Source: an uncultured delta proteobacterium (GTDB lineage: Bacteria > Desulfobacterota > Binatia > Bin18). From it: a stretch of 19,094 nucleotides of DNA. The DNA is taken from the NCBI GenBank assembly GCA_963733195.1, contig CAVTCR010000038.1, positions 1-19,094 on the forward strand, written 5' to 3'. This document shows positions 93-9,394 of this stretch, piece after piece. Positions within the stretch are counted from its first letter, which is position 1, and each line of letters begins with the position of its first letter. The translations under genes were made by a program, and so were the position numbers. Below the pieces are notes generated by a model, which made no database searches, had not been told where the DNA came from, and saw nothing but the letters and a program-made list of their open reading frames with translations.

Positions 93-1349
93 GTGTTACG
101 AGTGTCTTTCTTTGCATATTCTTGTTGGTCGCTCCGACGGGAGTTTTCCATACTTGCCTGTCTGCTCCTTGGGGTCATCGCGCTGGTGACCACGGCATGC
201 GAGAGCAATTATCCGGCCGCCGCCAAACAACCTCAAGCAAATGACGAAGAACTCTCCCGGCGGGTGAAGACCATCACGGTCAGGGAAATGCCCTTGGAGC
301 GCACTATCTCTGTACTTGGCTCGCTCGCTGCGTATGATCAAGTGGCCTTGAGCACGAAAGTACCGGGGCGCGTGTTCCGGATTCCGGTTGACTTCGGTAG
401 TGGAGTGGAACAAGGGCAGATACTCGCGGAAATAGAGCCGCGCGACTATCAACTACAGGAGCAACAGGCGGAAGCGGCCTTAGCGCAGGCACGTGTCCGC
501 TTAGGTCTTTCACCGACAGGGAAGGATACACATGTTGATCCGGAACAGACTGGCACGGTGAAGCAAGCGCGTGCATTGCTAGACGAGGCTGATCAAAAGC
601 GAGACCGTTTCGCTGCACTTGTGGACAAGGGTTTTATTGCCAAAGCTGAATTCGACGCGGCTGACGCGGCATATAAGGTGGCACTCAGCCAGTATCAGGA
701 CGCTGTCGAAGAGATTCGCAATCGTCAAGCCGTGTTGATGCAACGTCGCTCGGAGCTGGAAATTGCACGCCAGCGTCTGGCGGACACGGTCATTCACGCG
801 CCGTTTGACGGGGTTATCCAGATCAAGGCTGCGAGTGTCGGAGAGTATCTGGCGGTAAGCGCACCTGTTGTTACTCTGGTACGGATGGATCCTCTCCGTT
901 TACGCGCTGAAGTGCCCGAACGTGCGGCATCACAGAGTGCAAGCCGGGCAGAAAGTACGGGTGACGGTGGAAGGGAATCCGAACGTGTATGAAGGACAGG
1001 TCATGCGCGTCGGGCCGACGATCAATGAGCAGAACCGTATGCTCACCGTCGAGGCCGATGTGCCGTAATCGCGATTATACTCTTCGCCCCGGATCCTTTG
1101 CGCAAGGTCGATATCGTGACGGACGAGGCGGACATGGCGATCACCGTGCCGACCAGCGCGGTTGTCACTTTTGCTGGTCTTGAAAAAGTGTTGATGGTGA
1201 ACGATGGCAAAGCGGTAGAAACGCCTATTTCTACAGGACATCGGACGAATGAGTGGACTGAGGTCACCGAAGGGGTGCACAGCGGAGATGTGGTCATCGT
1301 TGAGCCAGGCAATCTTCGGTCGGGGCAACCTGTCAGCGTCGTCCAGTAA
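93..1349 (+). CDS. RND efflux periplasmic adaptor (membrane fusion protein), split by about 3 frameshifts (~930, ~1067, ~1098)
   Basis: ORF pieces 93-992, 868-1068 and 1098-1349 join into one MFP. They show a lipoprotein-like N-terminus (VTTAC), KVPGRV..VDFGS.VEQGQILAEI, a coiled hairpin, IHAPFDGVI, VPTSAVV and EGVHSGDVVIV. The start codon is uncertain. Confidence 0.9.
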
Positions 1350-1358
1350 GAAGTTGAC

Positions 1359-4592
<3,234 letters not shown>

Positions 4593-4656
4593 GGAATCAG
4601 CTCCGCACGTAATGTACAAGAACACAGAGCTGCTACATATTATTTCGTGCGCTGTG

Positions 4657-5170
4657 TCTTGCCTATAAGCGCCGCCCCGCCAGCCAGCGACACGGTCAGG
4701 GCCGCGCTCTGGGCCGAGAGACCACGGTCGGTGAGTAAGGGCACTAGGTGAATGATATACCCATGGAAACTCACTGAGATAAGGAAAAACGCACTGACCA
4801 TGAGCCAGAAGGTGCCCGTGTGCCAGGTCTCATAGAAGCTTAGCCCTTCCTCCTGGCCGCGCTGCTTTAGACACCTCAGCTTGCCCAACGGTATCGCCGT
4901 CAGGCTCCTGTCCTATCAGCTGTGGCGTCTCCTTGAGCAGGAGCCCGACCACCGGGATGGCGACTCCCATAGCCATGAGGCCCAGGAGCACGTAGGCGTG
5001 ACGCCAGCCCACTGCGGCAATGAGGGCTTGCGCCACAGGAGGGCATGAGAGATCCCGCCTACGGTGATAACGGCTACAGCCAGTCCCAAGGCTAAGCCGC
5101 GTCTGCGATCAAACCAGCGAGAGAGCACTTTTGCATAGGGCACTGGCGTCGTCCCGCTACCCACTACTAC
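4657..5170 (-). pseudogene. Internal fragment of an MFS transporter, paralog of the gene at 15466-16728; both ends missing and frameshifted
   Basis: The translated pieces GSGTTPVPYAKVLSRWFDRRRGLALGL, AQALIAAVGWRHAYVLL and TGTFWLMVSAFFLISVSFHGYIIHLVPLLTDRGLSAQ align with the intact MFS at about 15877-16385. Confidence 0.9.
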
Positions 5171-5777
5171 TCAGACAGGAACGAAAGATGGTCACAACCT
5201 GGCCGTGCTTGACTGATCTGCGCAACGCATCCTTGCTCGTCGGCCATGTGTGGATGAGCCCATGATCGAACCAGCGTTGCAGACATGAGCGTGAGACGCC
5301 AAGTTCACGTGCGAGCAGTTTGTCGAGCCGAACCTCACACGGGTAAGGAAGTTCCAGGAGGATGGTTTGCTTGCCATCACTTGTAGCTGGCCCAGTCTGG
5401 GGGATGTGCTCGACTTGCACTGCTACGGTTGGCTCGACACGAACGCCAAGACGTTGCAGGAGGGCAAGATCGAAGGCATACCTCCAGGCCGTTTCGCGGT
5501 GGTTGTCTTGAAATTGTCGGTATAAGACCGTGCCAATCTCTTCTGGTGTGGACCGCGTGAAGATCGTACAGTTCCAGGTGCAGTCACAGTCTACGCAGCG
5601 ATAGATGAGCCAGACATCGATTCTCCGTTGATTAGCGTTCACGCGAAACGTGTCACTACAAGCGAATGGTCGCATTGTGCCACAATGTGAACAATGGCGG
5701 AGTACTCGCGGTGTTATTACTGGTAGAATCCGCCAACGAATTTCTCCATTGCTGACATGCTGTGTGGTGGTATTCAC
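5157..5777 (-). CDS. DUF1062-like protein with two CxxC pairs and a C-terminal S4-like RNA-binding segment
   Basis: Motifs are RHCSHCG...FRVNANQRRIDVWLIYRCVDCDCTWN and a C-terminal RLDKLLARELGVSRSCLQRWFDHGLI (S4-like). The likely start is GTG at 5777, 5 nt after AGGAAGG; the ORF track starts at 5783. Confidence 0.85.
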   Translation of the reverse strand: MNTTTQHVSNGEIRWRILPVITPRVLRHCSHCGTMRPFACSDTFRVNANQRRIDVWLIYRCVDCDCTWNCTIFTRSTPEEIGTVLYRQFQDNHRETAWRYAFDLALLQRLGVRVEPTVAVQVEHIPQTGPATSDGKQTILLELPYPCEVRLDKLLARELGVSRSCLQRWFDHGLIHTWPTSKDALRRSVKHGQVVTIFRSCLSSSG

Positions 5778-5780
5778 AGC

Positions 5781-5801
5781 CACCTTCCTTTCAGGGAGGT
5801 G
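5781..5801 (-). promoter_or_regulatory. Hairpin sequestering the Shine-Dalgarno sequence of the DUF1062 gene
   Basis: On the minus strand, CACCUCCCU-GAA-AGGAAGGUG pairs at 8 of 9 positions. The 3' arm contains the SD. Confidence 0.6.
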
Positions 5802-5849
5802 CTGCGCAACAGCATGAAAAGCCGAGAGACGGCTAACGCGAAACTTAGA

Positions 5850-5915
5850 TCAGGCGGCTGAGCGGAGTCTCAGAAAGTGTACAGCTGGCCCGAGGGCGGA
5901 AGGATGGTTGTGCAT
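5850..5915 (-). CDS. Putative leader peptide (uORF) MHNHPSALGPAVHFLRLRSAA
   Basis: The 21-aa ORF lies within the leader, with further in-frame AUGs at 5927, 5930 and 5939. UAAGGAG sits directly against the 5915 AUG, which is atypical spacing. Confidence 0.35.
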   Translation of the reverse strand: MHNHPSALGPAVHFLRLRSAA

Positions 5916-5971
5916 CTCCTTAGGCATCATCGGGGCCATTGCCGGTCCGAATGAGACGCGGAAAATGATAC

Positions 5972-6110
5972 CGCCAGATCTCAGTCGGCCGCTGCGCAGG
6001 CTCCGGTTCGCCTCGTGGGTACGAGGACTATGGGAGAATGTCGGACGCACCGATGCGTTGACGTGCACGGCTGTCCGCGTGAAGATGCAGGGCGCTGAGA
6101 TCTGTTAGCG
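5972..6110 (-). ncRNA. Putative structured cis-regulatory RNA domain in the DUF1062 5' leader
   Basis: A perfect 10-bp inverted repeat (cagatctcag 5975-5984 / ctgagatctg 6095-6104) extends to ~20 bp with bulges. It encloses the hairpins cctcgt-gggt-acgagg (6011-6026) and acgca-ccga-tgcgt (6045-6058), plus a cggac/gtccg pairing. Confidence 0.5.
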
Positions 6111-6170
6111 TCGAGGTAACATAAAGAGGTGTGTTGTACGGTCGAGACTCAATGGCGTTAGAATGCCACG

Positions 6171-6200
6171 ATCGTACGAAACTATTTACTCCGTAGTCAA
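6171..6200 (-). promoter_or_regulatory. Sigma70-like promoter for the DUF1062 leader
   Basis: Minus strand TTGACT (6200-6195) - 18 nt - TACGAT (6176-6171). The predicted TSS is ~6164. Confidence 0.55.
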
Positions 6201-6270
6201 GAGAGTCCCGAAGAGACAGGACAGCTGCCACTCCTTTTCCTTTTGAGTCTCTTATGATTGTTGTAATCCT

Positions 6271-6726
6271 ATGATCACGATCGATCCACAAGTATTAGGA
6301 AAAGAGGTGCCAGTCGGTGACTTCCTGGCGACAGAGGAAAATATCCGAGCATTTGCTGAAGCGACTGGCGATAACGATTCCCTTTCCATCGATCCCGACG
6401 CGGCTCGGCGGGCGGGCTATCCCAGCTGCATTGCCCCGCCACTCTTTGGGATGAAGATTCGTGGCGCCCTGGCGCTCCCTGAAGCGGAACTTGCACCGGG
6501 ATTAGTCAGCCTGAATGCCGGACTAGAGTTCGAGTTTTATGACGAACTCTATGCAGGTCAGACTTACGCCGTCTCGGTAAAGATTACCGACGTATACGAG
6601 AAAACTGGGAGGAGCGGGCCGCTGGGTGTCTTCGTGCGGGAAATGTTGATTCGGGATGAGACAGGACAACTTATCGTGCTGATGCGTGAACGGCGCATGG
6701 TGCGGTCGCCGGAGAGAAAGATTTGA
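6271..6726 (+). CDS. MaoC-like hotdog-fold protein (FAS1/HadA-like subunit)
   Basis: Motifs are IRAFAEATGD..L..D...AR.AGY...IAPP, LNAGLEFEFY and VYEKTGRSGPL. Confidence 0.85.
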   Translation: MITIDPQVLGKEVPVGDFLATEENIRAFAEATGDNDSLSIDPDAARRAGYPSCIAPPLFGMKIRGALALPEAELAPGLVSLNAGLEFEFYDELYAGQTYAVSVKITDVYEKTGRSGPLGVFVREMLIRDETGQLIVLMRERRMVRSPERKI

Positions 6727-6728
6727 GG

Positions 6729-6827
6729 CGTAAAACGTGAAGCGTGTTGCGTGAAGGAGATATAGGAGAGTCACGGCTTTTGCTTGACGCATCTCGTACC
6801 ACGCATCACGTAACACGTACCATGTAG
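6729..6827. repeat. Inverted array of degenerate 7-bp repeats (CGTGNNN x4 ... CACGNNN x6)
   Basis: cgtaaaa cgtgaag cgtgttg cgtgaag (6729-6756) and gacgcat ctcgtac cacgcat cacgtaa cacgtac catgtag (6786-6827). Confidence 0.7.
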
Positions 6828-6856: not shown

Positions 6857-7297
6857 ATGAATAAGAGATCTCCCAAGCCCTTTGCGGATATAGACATCGG
6901 CGACGAAATCGGACCGCTGACATATACTCCAACGCTCGCGGACATTCAGCGCTACGGGACAGAGGTGCGGATGGTCGATCAACGCTTCATGAGTCAGGAA
7001 GTCGCACAGCAGCGAGGTTTTCAACACGCGGTCGTGCCGGGGCCGTTAAGTGCGACGTTCCTGGTGCGGATGCTGACAACGCATTTCTTCGGCTGGCGGC
7101 TCCAGACTCTCGCCATCAGTTTTCGTGCACCCGTACGACACGGTGACACGCTCACCTGCATCGGAACTGTCACCCAAAAAGAAGAGCAGGCTGGAACTTT
7201 TCTCATTCATTGCGACCTCGTTGCCGAGAATACCAATGGAGATCGCTGCCTGGTAGGGACGGCAGTGCTCTGCCCACGTCGTGCCCCGATTGCATAA
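6857..7297 (+). CDS. MaoC-family hotdog-fold protein (HadB-like subunit)
   Basis: Motifs are FADIDIGDEIGPL, AQQRGF..AVVPGPL and ISFRAPVRHGDTLTCIGTV. Confidence 0.85.
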   Translation: MNKRSPKPFADIDIGDEIGPLTYTPTLADIQRYGTEVRMVDQRFMSQEVAQQRGFQHAVVPGPLSATFLVRMLTTHFFGWRLQTLAISFRAPVRHGDTLTCIGTVTQKEEQAGTFLIHCDLVAENTNGDRCLVGTAVLCPRRAPIA

Positions 7298-7350: not shown

Positions 7351-7824
7351 ATGCCAGAACTGAGCGTGTATCAGGCCCGTCGGGAAGAGTTGAAGCGACG
7401 TTATCTCTCTGCTGAAGCGGAAGTGCCTCAATCGGTCAACACCGGAGGTGTCGATCATCTTGCGCTGATTTGTTCAGACCTCGATACGACTATCCGATTC
7501 TACACAGAAGTCCTTGGCATGCGCCTCACCAAGATTATGGCGAATCGTGATGAGCCTACTTCCACGCATATCTTTCTCGATATGGGTGGCGGAAATCAAT
7601 TGGCGTTCTTCGATTTCCCGGAGAAGGGGCCGGCGCGCACGGTCCGTGGTGTCGGTAGTATGCATCATGTTGCGCTCAAGGCTACGCCAGAAAAATTCTC
7701 TGCAATCCTGGCGACCCTCAAAGACAAACACGTTCCGTATTCTCTGCATGGTACAGAAAACGCGGGATCGGTGTACGTACGCGACCCGGATGACATTTTG
7801 GTTGAGGTCACAACCGGGTATTAG
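7351..7824 (+). CDS. VOC/glyoxalase family protein
   Basis: Motifs are GVDHLAL...FYTEVLGM, MHHVAL and YVRDPDDILVE. There is a strong SD (AGGAGG). Confidence 0.9.
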   Translation: MPELSVYQARREELKRRYLSAEAEVPQSVNTGGVDHLALICSDLDTTIRFYTEVLGMRLTKIMANRDEPTSTHIFLDMGGGNQLAFFDFPEKGPARTVRGVGSMHHVALKATPEKFSAILATLKDKHVPYSLHGTENAGSVYVRDPDDILVEVTTGY

Positions 7825-7887: not shown

Positions 7888-9102
7888 TTAGAGCCCCAGC
7901 GCCTTGGCAATATTGACCCGCTGAATCTCATCCGTGCCGCCAGGAATGCGCAGGTTGCGGGCGATGCGGAAGATCTTTTCAATCCCAGACTCTTTCATCA
8001 ACCCGTGCGCGCCGTGTAATTGCACGGCGCGATCGGCGATGCGATAGAATGCTTCGTCGCAGAATACTTTGAGGGCACAGACGACTTGCACAAGTCGTGG
8101 GTCAACTTTGAGTGTCCATAAATTTCCCTGGTCCGCCTGCCACAAACACTGTAAAGACATGCTTTTCATTGCCTGCACGTCAAGGTAGGAATCAACAATC
8201 ATCCACTGCAACGCTTGAAAGCGGCTGAGTGGGCCGCCGAACGCCTGACGATTCTTAATGTATGATACACAGCGATCAAGCAGATATTGTCCAAGCCCAG
8301 TGCACATACCGCCGCGCCGCACGCGAATCCAGTTAATCATGCCCATGCTGAGATAGAAGCCTTCACCCTCTTTGCCCCAGGTGCTGTCGAGAGGTGTACG
8401 ACAGTTGTCGAAGACTAGCTCGCCGGTCATGCCATCGTCCATGATCGTGCGATAGGTGCGACCGATACGTAACCCAGGCGCATCTTGTTCGACCACGAAT
8501 GTTGTCCCGCCTTCGCCGCGCTTGCTGGGGTCAGTCATCGCGCAGACGATAATCAACTCTGCGTATGGAGCGTTGGTAATATAGGCTTTTGTACCGTTAA
8601 TGATCCACTCATCTCCTTGCCGGTGGGCACGTGTCTCCATACCCAAGACATCTGAACCGCCACGATATTCGGTGATGGCGTAGGCCGCAGTTTTTTCTCC
8701 GCGGATCATCGGGATGAGATATTTTCGCTTTTGTTCATCGGTCAGAAACATCAACATCTGATTCGGCCCTTCGGTCCACGACAGCATCCATTGGGTGACG
8801 CCAATGCCATGCTGATAGACGGCCTCGTGGACAAAGAACATGTCGGTCAAACTGAACCCGCCACCGCCGACTTCTTTCGGCATGTGCAGGGCATAGAAGC
8901 CACGCTCGGCTGAGCGTTTGCGAATGCTGCGTTGGGCTTCTAACACTTCTGGTGCTAAGCGGCCGTCTTCACGCAAGTACAAATGCTCGTTTGTCAGATG
9001 CTCAGCGAGATCATGTTCGATCGGTTTCAGTTCGTCGTTGATGAAACGATGAATGTCACTGACGGTTTGTTGTACGTGCGTGGGAGGAGTGAAGTCGATC
9101 AT
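7888..9102 (-). CDS. Acyl-CoA dehydrogenase family flavoprotein (404 aa)
   Basis: The start MIDFTPP is typical. Other motifs are PKEVGGGG, AYAITEYRGGSD, WIINGTKAYITNA, RQAFGGPLSRFQALQW, AVQLHGAHG and RIPGGTDEIQR. The 55 extra upstream codons in the ORF track belong to the PIN remnant. Confidence 0.92.
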   Translation of the reverse strand: MIDFTPPTHVQQTVSDIHRFINDELKPIEHDLAEHLTNEHLYLREDGRLAPEVLEAQRSIRKRSAERGFYALHMPKEVGGGGFSLTDMFFVHEAVYQHGIGVTQWMLSWTEGPNQMLMFLTDEQKRKYLIPMIRGEKTAAYAITEYRGGSDVLGMETRAHRQGDEWIINGTKAYITNAPYAELIIVCAMTDPSKRGEGGTTFVVEQDAPGLRIGRTYRTIMDDGMTGELVFDNCRTPLDSTWGKEGEGFYLSMGMINWIRVRRGGMCTGLGQYLLDRCVSYIKNRQAFGGPLSRFQALQWMIVDSYLDVQAMKSMSLQCLWQADQGNLWTLKVDPRLVQVVCALKVFCDEAFYRIADRAVQLHGAHGLMKESGIEKIFRIARNLRIPGGTDEIQRVNIAKALGL

Positions 9103-9109
9103 GCGCCGT

Positions 9110-9394
9110 TCTTTACTGAAAGAGAGGTGTTGAAAGGATGTCGCCGGGGTATACACAGGAATTGTCGTTCGACGAGCAAAGGGATAAACATTCGGAAAAT
9201 TGTAAAGCCAGGAATGGAGATCCTTCGGTGTCAAATTAAAGGACGCGACCCCACACAGTTCCATCAATGTAAAAGTAGATATGCCCGCTTCTAGAGCGGA
9301 CAGAGATATTTAAAAATCTACGATTTACGGGGAAATGTGTATCGCGCGGAAAGAAACGGTCAATGACAAAGAGGTTACTATCGAGTAAGACCAT
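9110..9394 (-). pseudogene. PIN-domain (VapC-like) toxin remnant with a frameshift and an apparent internal deletion
   Basis: The ATG at 9394 overlaps the antitoxin 3' end and reads MVLLDSNLFVIDRFFPRDTHFPVNRRFL. After a shift near 9310 it continues SLSALEAGISTFTLMELCGVASFN...NVYP|FARRTTIPVYTP. The hhhDxN and TLxE motifs are present, but the later conserved Asp motifs are not seen. Confidence 0.7.

Follow-up and report, generated by a model that had tools for sequence, protein, structure and literature searches.

A widely conserved, putatively cis-regulatory leader RNA upstream of DUF1062 genes

Autoregulatory leaders are found on ribosomal-protein mRNAs, among them the pseudoknot operator of S4 in the alpha operon and the long-range pseudoknot of L20. 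Here we compare such systems with the leader of a DUF1062 gene on the minus strand of a 19,094-nt stretch of DNA (contig CAVTCR010000038.1), the whole of which we call the window. Sequence comparisons place this leader in an uncataloged, widely conserved family of structured RNAs, and it most likely controls whether the ribosome-binding site (RBS) of DUF1062 is open or shut. A first-pass annotation, made from the sequence alone, had proposed a riboswitch or attenuator candidate at this locus; the features it described were recovered, and its interpretation was borne out in part. Features of the leader and of the gene are given below on the minus strand, with coordinates in the window.

The conserved core of the leader, which we refer to as the DUF1062 leader motif (6129..5962), is composed of a short helix P0, an internal loop, the helices P1 and P1b, and a three-way junction from which the hairpins P2 and P3 branch off. 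P1 is a perfect 10-nt inverted repeat (CAGAUCUCAG at 6104..6095 and CUGAGAUCUG at 5984..5975), and it is continued by P1b, an irregular eight-pair extension that was taken from the minimum-free-energy folds of the window and six relatives and whose 5′ strand lies at 6094..6087. Its 3′ strand is segment A (CUGCGCAGCGGC, 5999..5988; inverted repeat I1), which has a second predicted partner described below. Together P1 and P1b make a closing stem of about 18 bp, in good agreement with the multibranch domain and ~20-bp stem (6110 to 5972) of the first-pass annotation, and the minimum-free-energy fold of 6165..5760 (−136.7 kcal/mol, z = −3.08) was more stable than any of 100 shuffles. In most other clades the P0 5′ strand is the UGCC of UUUGCC, an almost invariant sequence that precedes P1 by about 10 nt and can pair with GGCA 3–4 nt after P1; the window has UACC (6118..6115) and GGUA (5972..5969) in these places. 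P2 (6077..6042, CGGAC...GUCCG) is found with the outer-stem variants GGAC/GUCC, GAAC/GUUC and GGAU/AUCC, and P3 (6036..6001) has an outer CUCC/GGAG stem (6036..6033 with 6004..6001), an inner CCUCG/CGAGG stem (6026..6022 with 6015..6011) and a variable loop.

The strongest evidence for this structure comes from P1. RNAalifold predicts it on a structure-blind MAFFT alignment of 106 instances (A10), on which 98.6% of its cells pair, compared with 19–48% in slid controls, and 4 of its 9 pairs show compensatory change (AU:10/CG:85, AU:32/GC:67, AU:27/GC:70). Conserved, covarying structure upstream of DUF1062 homologs, which the first-pass annotation had named as the test of its proposal, is thus present. 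Double changes link three types of P1: CAGAUCUCAG/CUGAGAUCUG in the clade of the window, CCGAUCUCAG/CUGAGAUCGG, and CCGGUCUCG/CGAGACCGG in Mesorhizobium. On a model-fitted alignment (A7), 18 of 37 pairs show compensatory change, a count reached by none of 500 shuffles; A7 leans towards the structure of the model, and the compensatory changes in P1b, P2 and P3 rest on it. For P0, 89% of cells pair on A10, where MAFFT puts the window clade one column off, and we treat this helix as tentative because the difference between UACC/GGUA and UGCC/GGCA amounts to a single compensatory event. P0 and P1 are the most conserved in sequence, and most of the invariant letters fall in these helices and in strand A. 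Further out, the junction and branches vary in length and sequence between clades, forming a three-way junction in the window clade and something shorter in Mesorhizobium, and cross-clade alignment of these distal parts is unreliable. The distal hairpin of Mesorhizobium (2780..2794 in locus L142), which lies between the P1 strands, is G+C-rich and has a conserved U-rich tail that fits the pattern of an intrinsic terminator; this clade might add premature termination to its control, and the window clade is without such a feature.

We built three covariance models of the motif, R1 from 7 sequences, R2 from 16 and R3 from all 106 instances, and drew the loci to be searched from 343 DUF1062 relatives, the nearest of which sit on soil-metagenome contigs; the comparison set held 80 metagenome and 80 genome loci. 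The window matches R1 at 170.6 bits, R2 at 129.2 and R3 at 57.7. With R1 we obtained nine additional matches, each in sense orientation and immediately ahead of DUF1062. R2 gave sense matches in 39 of the 80 metagenome loci in addition to the window, and in 66 of the 80 genome loci, a set that takes in nearly all Mesorhizobium, Dongiaceae, Rhodospirillales, Kiloniellales, Entotheonella and some Myxococcota. In all 105 of 105 loci the R2 motif ends 60–283 nt (median 128) before the start codon. A search with R3 of 35 loci, two of them new and the other 33 drawn from the 55 that lacked an R2 match (with L158 outside this retest), added L107, L046 and L166. Within the genomes searched, the motif was found only in the leader of DUF1062, and 6 of 6 genomes (that of the window and five others) have one strong R2 or R3 match each, always at this gene. 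An R3 scan of 150 Alphaproteobacteria under stricter filters yielded no new match; only 2 of the 150 hold a DUF1062 match, and the scan says little because it missed G108, in which a direct search finds the motif. Six loci (L014, L016, L017, L019, L055 and L079) have no R2 or R3 match and yet carry a CUUCC/GGAAG-type hairpin before the start; some of these contigs are too short upstream, that of L055 is ample, and divergent leaders may exist.

The first-pass annotation did not recognize the RNA as a known family, and our searches agree: in the whole window nothing in Rfam 15 reached its gathering threshold, relaxing the limit to E = 10 brought up rows at chance level alone in 5600..6400 of the window, as relaxed thresholds did in the L142 and L141 leaders, and in 20 related loci the motif itself was without a match.

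Conservation around the gene gives a similar picture of a unit made up of promoter, leader and coding sequence. Since 40 relatives of the genome yielded neither the gene nor the leader, the comparison is drawn from distant loci: the DUF1062 protein was not found in any of the 40, nor was the leader DNA, apart from a 30-nt match beside a MaoC-like gene in one of them (G001). In the three closest loci (L004, L005 and L007), whose proteins are 75–82% identical to that of the window, promoter and leader share 77% DNA identity over about 428 nt and the coding sequence 77–82%; in the flanks, neither the 295 nt before the promoter nor the 297 nt after the stop shows any similarity. With nhmmer, the domain core was also detected in loci with proteins only 44–58% identical. 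DNA contigs from two soil-metagenome runs (X1 and X2) track the window through DUF1062 and diverge from it at 5164/5165, a few bases past the stop. Going by these alignments, promoter, leader and gene together behave like one module, about 1.05 kb long, in varying contexts. The gene context differs between clades, is constant at the Mesorhizobium locus, and often leaves DUF1062 monocistronic with its own promoter.

Variable columns of the leader are spread over the three codon phases as 47/44/56, and we regard the leader as non-coding because these columns lack a 3-base periodicity. Decayed coding sequence, or an upstream open reading frame (uORF), is ruled out by a 14-nt indel, a stop in L004 and the missing periodicity. 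Likewise, the 487 nt of intergenic DNA are single-copy in the window’s own 6.9-Mb genome and are therefore no dispersed repeat; a repeat, a miniature inverted-repeat transposable element or a mobile inverted repeat is ruled out, the intergenic DNA and the models each matching their own genome once.

The link from this domain to translation is a hairpin found just before the start codon in all clades, in which a CUUCC-like anti-Shine–Dalgarno (anti-SD) sequence pairs with a GGAAG-like Shine–Dalgarno (SD) sequence. In the window this is the hairpin at 5801..5781 that had been proposed to occlude the SD: the anti-SD CACCUCCC (5801..5794) is joined by the loop UGAAA to the SD arm GGAAGGUG (5788..5781). 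By a permissive criterion, 81 of 92 distinct motif-bearing leaders have such a hairpin, a count that is unspecific because 19 of 28 loci without a detected motif have it too; at 6 bp or more, it is seen in 66 of the 92 versus 9 of the 28. Directly 5′ of the anti-SD lies segment A′ (GCUGUUGCGCAG, 5813..5802), which can pair with A. In the unconstrained fold of the window, which we call state 1, A is held in P1b and the RBS hairpin, enlarged by A′, reaches across the start codon. If the 5′ strand of P1 is kept from pairing, the fold given by RNAfold is exactly the alternative, state 2, at −127.0 versus −136.7 kcal/mol: A pairs with A′ over 12 bp, and segment B pairs with B′. Segment B is made up of the P1 3′ strand and 5974..5971, and B′ (CCGCCUGAUCU, 5857..5847), which is invariant in L004, L005 and L007, is complementary to the 3′ half of P1 plus GGCGG (5981..5971). 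Judged by eye, L008, L144 and L141 seem to have B′ variants that fit their local P1 sequence. The two states are nearly isoenergetic in L141, L087, L086 and L012.

The pairing of A with A′ is not peculiar to the window. In 43 of 90 leaders, no part of the spacer pairs better with A than the segment just before the anti-SD, and in 56 of 90 this segment ranks in the top tenth; for leaders of the CCGAUCUCA type it comes first in 14 of 18. The A:A′ duplex runs to 13–17 bp; in state 1, 65–79% of the A nucleotides that take part in it have partners within the domain. Cognate A:A′ pairs are predicted to be more stable than swapped ones (−22.3 versus −16.7 kcal/mol for 77 pairs), as they are for 18 lineage representatives (−21.1 versus −17.5 kcal/mol), for which none of 5000 permutations was as low. 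Within Mesorhizobium, spacer covariation is uninformative because the sequences are too similar. Since A has a second partner beside the SD-masking hairpin, and since A and A′ co-evolve, these results point to a two-state translational switch. The modeling supports this two-state architecture; the polarity of the switch and its effect on translation we infer. Mutually exclusive pairings coupled to a closing stem, as in the expression platform of a riboswitch, are found here, although modeled RBS accessibility does not change between the states. P1 may also partly coexist with A:A′ as a pseudoknot.

The leader is delimited by a sigma-70-type promoter at 6200..6171 (−35 TTGACT at 6200..6195, an 18-nt spacer, and −10 TACGAT at 6176..6171), the same one from which the first-pass annotation had predicted a ~390-nt 5′ untranslated region (UTR). 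It is the only sigma-70-like site that a promoter scan found in 5100..6800, a result that by itself proves little because shuffles give 0.8 sites on average; in addition, both hexamers are invariant in L004, L005 and L007 (alignment A2), and similarity to these relatives starts just upstream of the −35. The promoter position predicts a transcription start near 6164 and hence, with the start codon, a UTR of about 387 nt (about 6164..5778). As the start codon we take GTG 5777..5775, because the start of the longest open reading frame (ORF), GTG 5783, overlaps the SD GGAAGG (5788..5783) while 5777 sits 5 nt after it. The 206-residue form listed in the protein collection also begins at GTG 5777, and an alignment with 18 relatives places the DUF1062 N-terminus within two residues of the ORF start.

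The coding sequence (5777..5157) thus specifies 206 residues, with an N-terminal four-cysteine beta domain and a C-terminal S4-like domain. That the gene belongs to DUF1062, as first annotated, is clear from Pfam (PF06353, 120.9 bits against a cut-off of 23, E = 8.3e-35). AlphaFold2 modeled the protein confidently, with a predicted local distance difference test score (pLDDT) of 93.1. A Foldseek search of the PDB with this model returned nothing at E up to 0.001. In a structure search independent of Foldseek, residues of about 147–206 align with S4 domains, best with that of a mitoribosome assembly factor (Z = 5.7), then with RluF (Z = 3.5, 24% identity) and with RsuA, Hsp15, TlyA, TyrRS and YlmH (Z = 3.0–3.4), and residues 23–120 align with small beta-barrels (CarD, KorB-C, EF-P domain I). 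The Pfam S4 profile scores 15.6 bits against a cut-off of 22.8 (E = 0.013), and a PDB profile search lists RluD, RsuA and YlmH at E = 0.04–0.5 and a TFIIS-type zinc ribbon at E = 0.48. The paired CxxC motifs and S4-like segment noted at first reading are therefore borne out, the S4 matches being weak in all three kinds of search. To describe DUF1062 as an S4-like RNA-binding domain joined to a four-cysteine domain is, on these models, reasonable but not proven. The family is widespread in bacteria, one Atlas cluster having about 8,000 members. Full-text literature searches for ‘DUF1062’ and ‘mlr4111’, which did not extend to supplementary files, returned incidental mentions only and no account of a function or of a leader motif; where a table in PMC11471933 lists DUF1062 beside an antibiotic, the entry is a homopolymer-length difference. 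The proposed role in ribosome stress or antibiotic response found no support within this analysis.

On the divergent side, a MaoC/FAS1-dehydratase-like gene starts at 6271 (6271..6726), leaving 487 nt between the two ORFs; it is followed by a second such gene (6857..7297), by a glyoxalase-family gene (7351..7824; assigned, like the dehydratases, with Pfam) and, on the opposite strand, by a 459-residue ORF (7888..9267). Directly downstream of DUF1062, the minus strand of 4640–5164 holds three short ORFs in different frames, two of which have weak MFS_1 matches (E = 0.0014 and 0.0053), so that the region looks like a broken major facilitator superfamily (MFS) transporter gene. In its place L005 has an intact MFS gene for 457 residues, and there is no DNA similarity between the two. 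Further along, a 510-residue ORF on the plus strand (3060–4592) has a match to the AcrB/ACR_tran profile that is confined to the C-terminal portion of the profile (positions 629–1020 of 1021), and ORFs in other frames (93..992, 1359..1817 and 2091..2903) may be the rest of a frameshifted resistance–nodulation–division pump gene or reflect assembly errors. In some relatives a known riboswitch lies close by: RF00080, the Mn2+ riboswitch, matches at 50–64 bits, on the same strand, in L091, L141, L045, L143 and L113 (about 1500–2100 in locus coordinates). In L141 the order is Mn2+ riboswitch, gene for a GDT1-family cation transporter, DUF1062 leader, DUF1062.

As to what sets the predicted switch, we tentatively favor autoregulation by the DUF1062 protein, with a probability of roughly 0.4, over a small-molecule riboswitch. 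In state 1, A would pair with the 5′ strand of the domain, and A′ would be free; translation would be off because A′ lengthens the RBS hairpin over the start codon. In state 2, the pairing of A with A′ (and, in the window, of B with B′) would strip the base of this hairpin, and translation would be on or leaky. DUF1062 itself would lock state 1 by binding the sequence-conserved P0–P1 helix, giving negative autoregulation in the manner of ribosomal-protein operators. We lean this way because the motif occurs only at DUF1062 and once per genome, because the gene is often monocistronic with a promoter of its own, because the helices hold most of the sequence conservation and the distal junction drifts, and because the product looks like an RNA binder. 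The leader may then be the specific RNA target that defines what the S4/zinc-ribbon DUF1062 family recognizes.

Several observations weigh against this interpretation. Modeled RBS accessibility over 103 leaders is the same in both states (mean 0.28 versus 0.28; 30 leaders up, 21 down and 52 unchanged), the duplex energy compared with shuffled spacers is weak (median z −1.36, with 12% below −2), and only 22 of 60 leaders of the Mesorhizobium type have the segment before the anti-SD as the top-ranked partner of A. The advantage of cognate over swapped pairs may owe something to differences in G+C content between lineages. The S4 similarity lies under the Pfam cut-off and has low structural Z scores. 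With these models, the DUF1062 loci of Firmicutes, Bacteroides and Eubacteriales gave no motif match, and the result for Firmicutes and Bacteroides implies that the protein does not need the leader RNA everywhere. Contigs from the single metatranscriptome run (X20) cover only 6285..6435 and 6639..6789, parts of the two dehydratase-like genes; they are neutral on transcription of the leader, and we list them on this side. Finally, exclusive linkage to one gene family would also fit a riboswitch with a protein-related ligand.

Such a riboswitch, for a small molecule or an ion, is possible, although we think it unlikely. P0, P1, P1b and the junction would be its aptamer, and the ligand would fix P1/P1b and so set the equilibrium between A:A′ and the RBS hairpin; as a new class, it would reach the RBS hairpin by way of the long-range A:A′ helix, which may resemble an H-type pseudoknot, and DUF1062 would be the first gene family connected with its ligand. 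The layout is a classical one, a P1-closed multi-stem domain with a 3′ strand that has an alternative partner beside the RBS, and it fits a riboswitch as well as it fits autoregulation; the near-isoenergetic states in several lineages and the wide spread of a motif that matches no known family also speak for it, as do the MFS transporter downstream in L005, a relative from the window clade, and, in Dongiaceae-type loci, the Mn2+ riboswitch and GDT1-family gene directly upstream on the same strand. However, clades differ in the length and sequence of the distal junction and branches, where a binding pocket would sit, and most of the invariant letters belong to helices. The motif accompanies one gene family, once per genome, and has no regulon; the context varies from clade to clade and points to no candidate ligand. 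We find it improbable that the input is of another sort: temperature, another trans-acting protein (S4-type or ribosome-associated), a small RNA, or co-transcriptional folding kinetics combined with RNase processing of P1. The SD is masked in both modeled states (accessibility about 0.28), so something must open it, as in RNA thermometers, and P1, as a long perfect duplex, might serve as a site for a nuclease or a protein; for a thermometer in particular, though, ROSE, fourU and the other thermometer families match at chance level only, and a covarying upstream domain of 130–170 nt exceeds what one would need.

Control by ribosome stalling, a leader peptide or a terminator, part of the original proposal, we consider very improbable and, for the window, largely refuted. 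The leader does contain small ORFs (for example 5850..6068, 72 aa), so the uORF reported at first exists, but it is not conserved: L005 and L007 have a 14-nt deletion within the ORF, which also removes the inner stem of P2, a 21-codon ORF of the window is cut down to AUG-UAG in L004, and the variable columns show no codon periodicity. The short hairpin reported at 5834–5817 is likewise present in the spacer (AGCCG-UCUCU-CGGCU at 5834..5820, followed by UUUU), but its 5-bp stem is weakened and only partly kept in L004, L005 and L007, and a terminator scan called nothing on the minus strand in 5100..6800, this hairpin included, so that we see no convincing terminator. The terminator-like distal hairpin of Mesorhizobium with its U-rich tail (L142 2780..2794) does speak for attenuation. 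An element acting as DNA, for example as a protein-binding site or as inverted repeats belonging to a mobile cassette, or else a conserved UTR without regulatory role, is about as poor a candidate. In its favor, the 1.05-kb module travels with unrelated flanks, the gene was not found in any of the 40 relatives, metagenome contigs leave the window at 5164/5165, and P1 contains a palindrome, which is why the models have antisense rows. These rows are weak (20.7 bits or less) and overlap the sense matches, the window scoring 16 bits against 129 on the sense strand. Moreover, the element is single-copy in the genome, its P1 cells that depart from Watson–Crick pairing are mostly G-U on the sense strand, its arms are 110 nt apart, and its context in Mesorhizobium is constant; its position relative to the start codon and its co-evolving pairing with the RBS region are features of an RNA.

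A conserved and covarying leader RNA that accompanies the gene in several orders is the first testable handle on the DUF1062 family. If the protein binds it, as autoregulation by DUF1062 would have it, the leader would reveal the specificity of the protein along with a new autoregulatory pair; if the RNA senses a ligand, it would represent a new orphan riboswitch class and a pointer to the pathway of the protein. The motif also brings a well-supported family to the catalog of bacterial cis-regulatory RNAs: it has over 100 instances, its three types of P1 are connected by compensatory changes, and Mesorhizobium, where genetics is available, is among the carriers.

Of the described systems found near or compared with this leader, the Mn2+ riboswitch yybP-ykoY (RF00080) is also a cis-regulatory leader and shares its neighborhood in 5 of the 20 loci scanned, which are of the Dongiaceae and Rhodospirillum types. 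Unlike the DUF1062 motif, it controls a GDT1-family gene; it is a separate element, about 650–800 nt upstream and without overlap, and is not present in the window. RNA thermometers such as ROSE and fourU, from Rhizobiales and others, have in common with this leader a short hairpin in which the SD faces a pyrimidine-rich anti-SD directly before the start, but here that hairpin is coupled to a large covarying domain; HtrA_thermometer, at 14.4 bits on the opposite strand, is a chance match. Translational riboswitches that switch through P1 are closer in architecture: they too have a multi-helix domain closed by P1 and a P1-proximal 3′ strand that re-pairs beside an SD hairpin. The DUF1062 leader differs from them in having neither a junction pocket conserved across clades nor a multi-gene regulon, and it matches no Rfam riboswitch (PreQ1-III, at 13.3 bits against a cut-off of 63, is at chance level). 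The comparison with ribosomal-protein operators is limited in that DUF1062 is not a ribosomal protein and is a predicted RNA binder only, and the leader matches none of the ribosomal-protein leader families in Rfam. In other respects the resemblance to these operators is considerable: a structured leader occurs only at its own gene, which encodes a candidate RNA binder, its conserved helices are the likely protein site, and the RBS is trapped or masked through what is here a predicted long-range pairing between operator and RBS.

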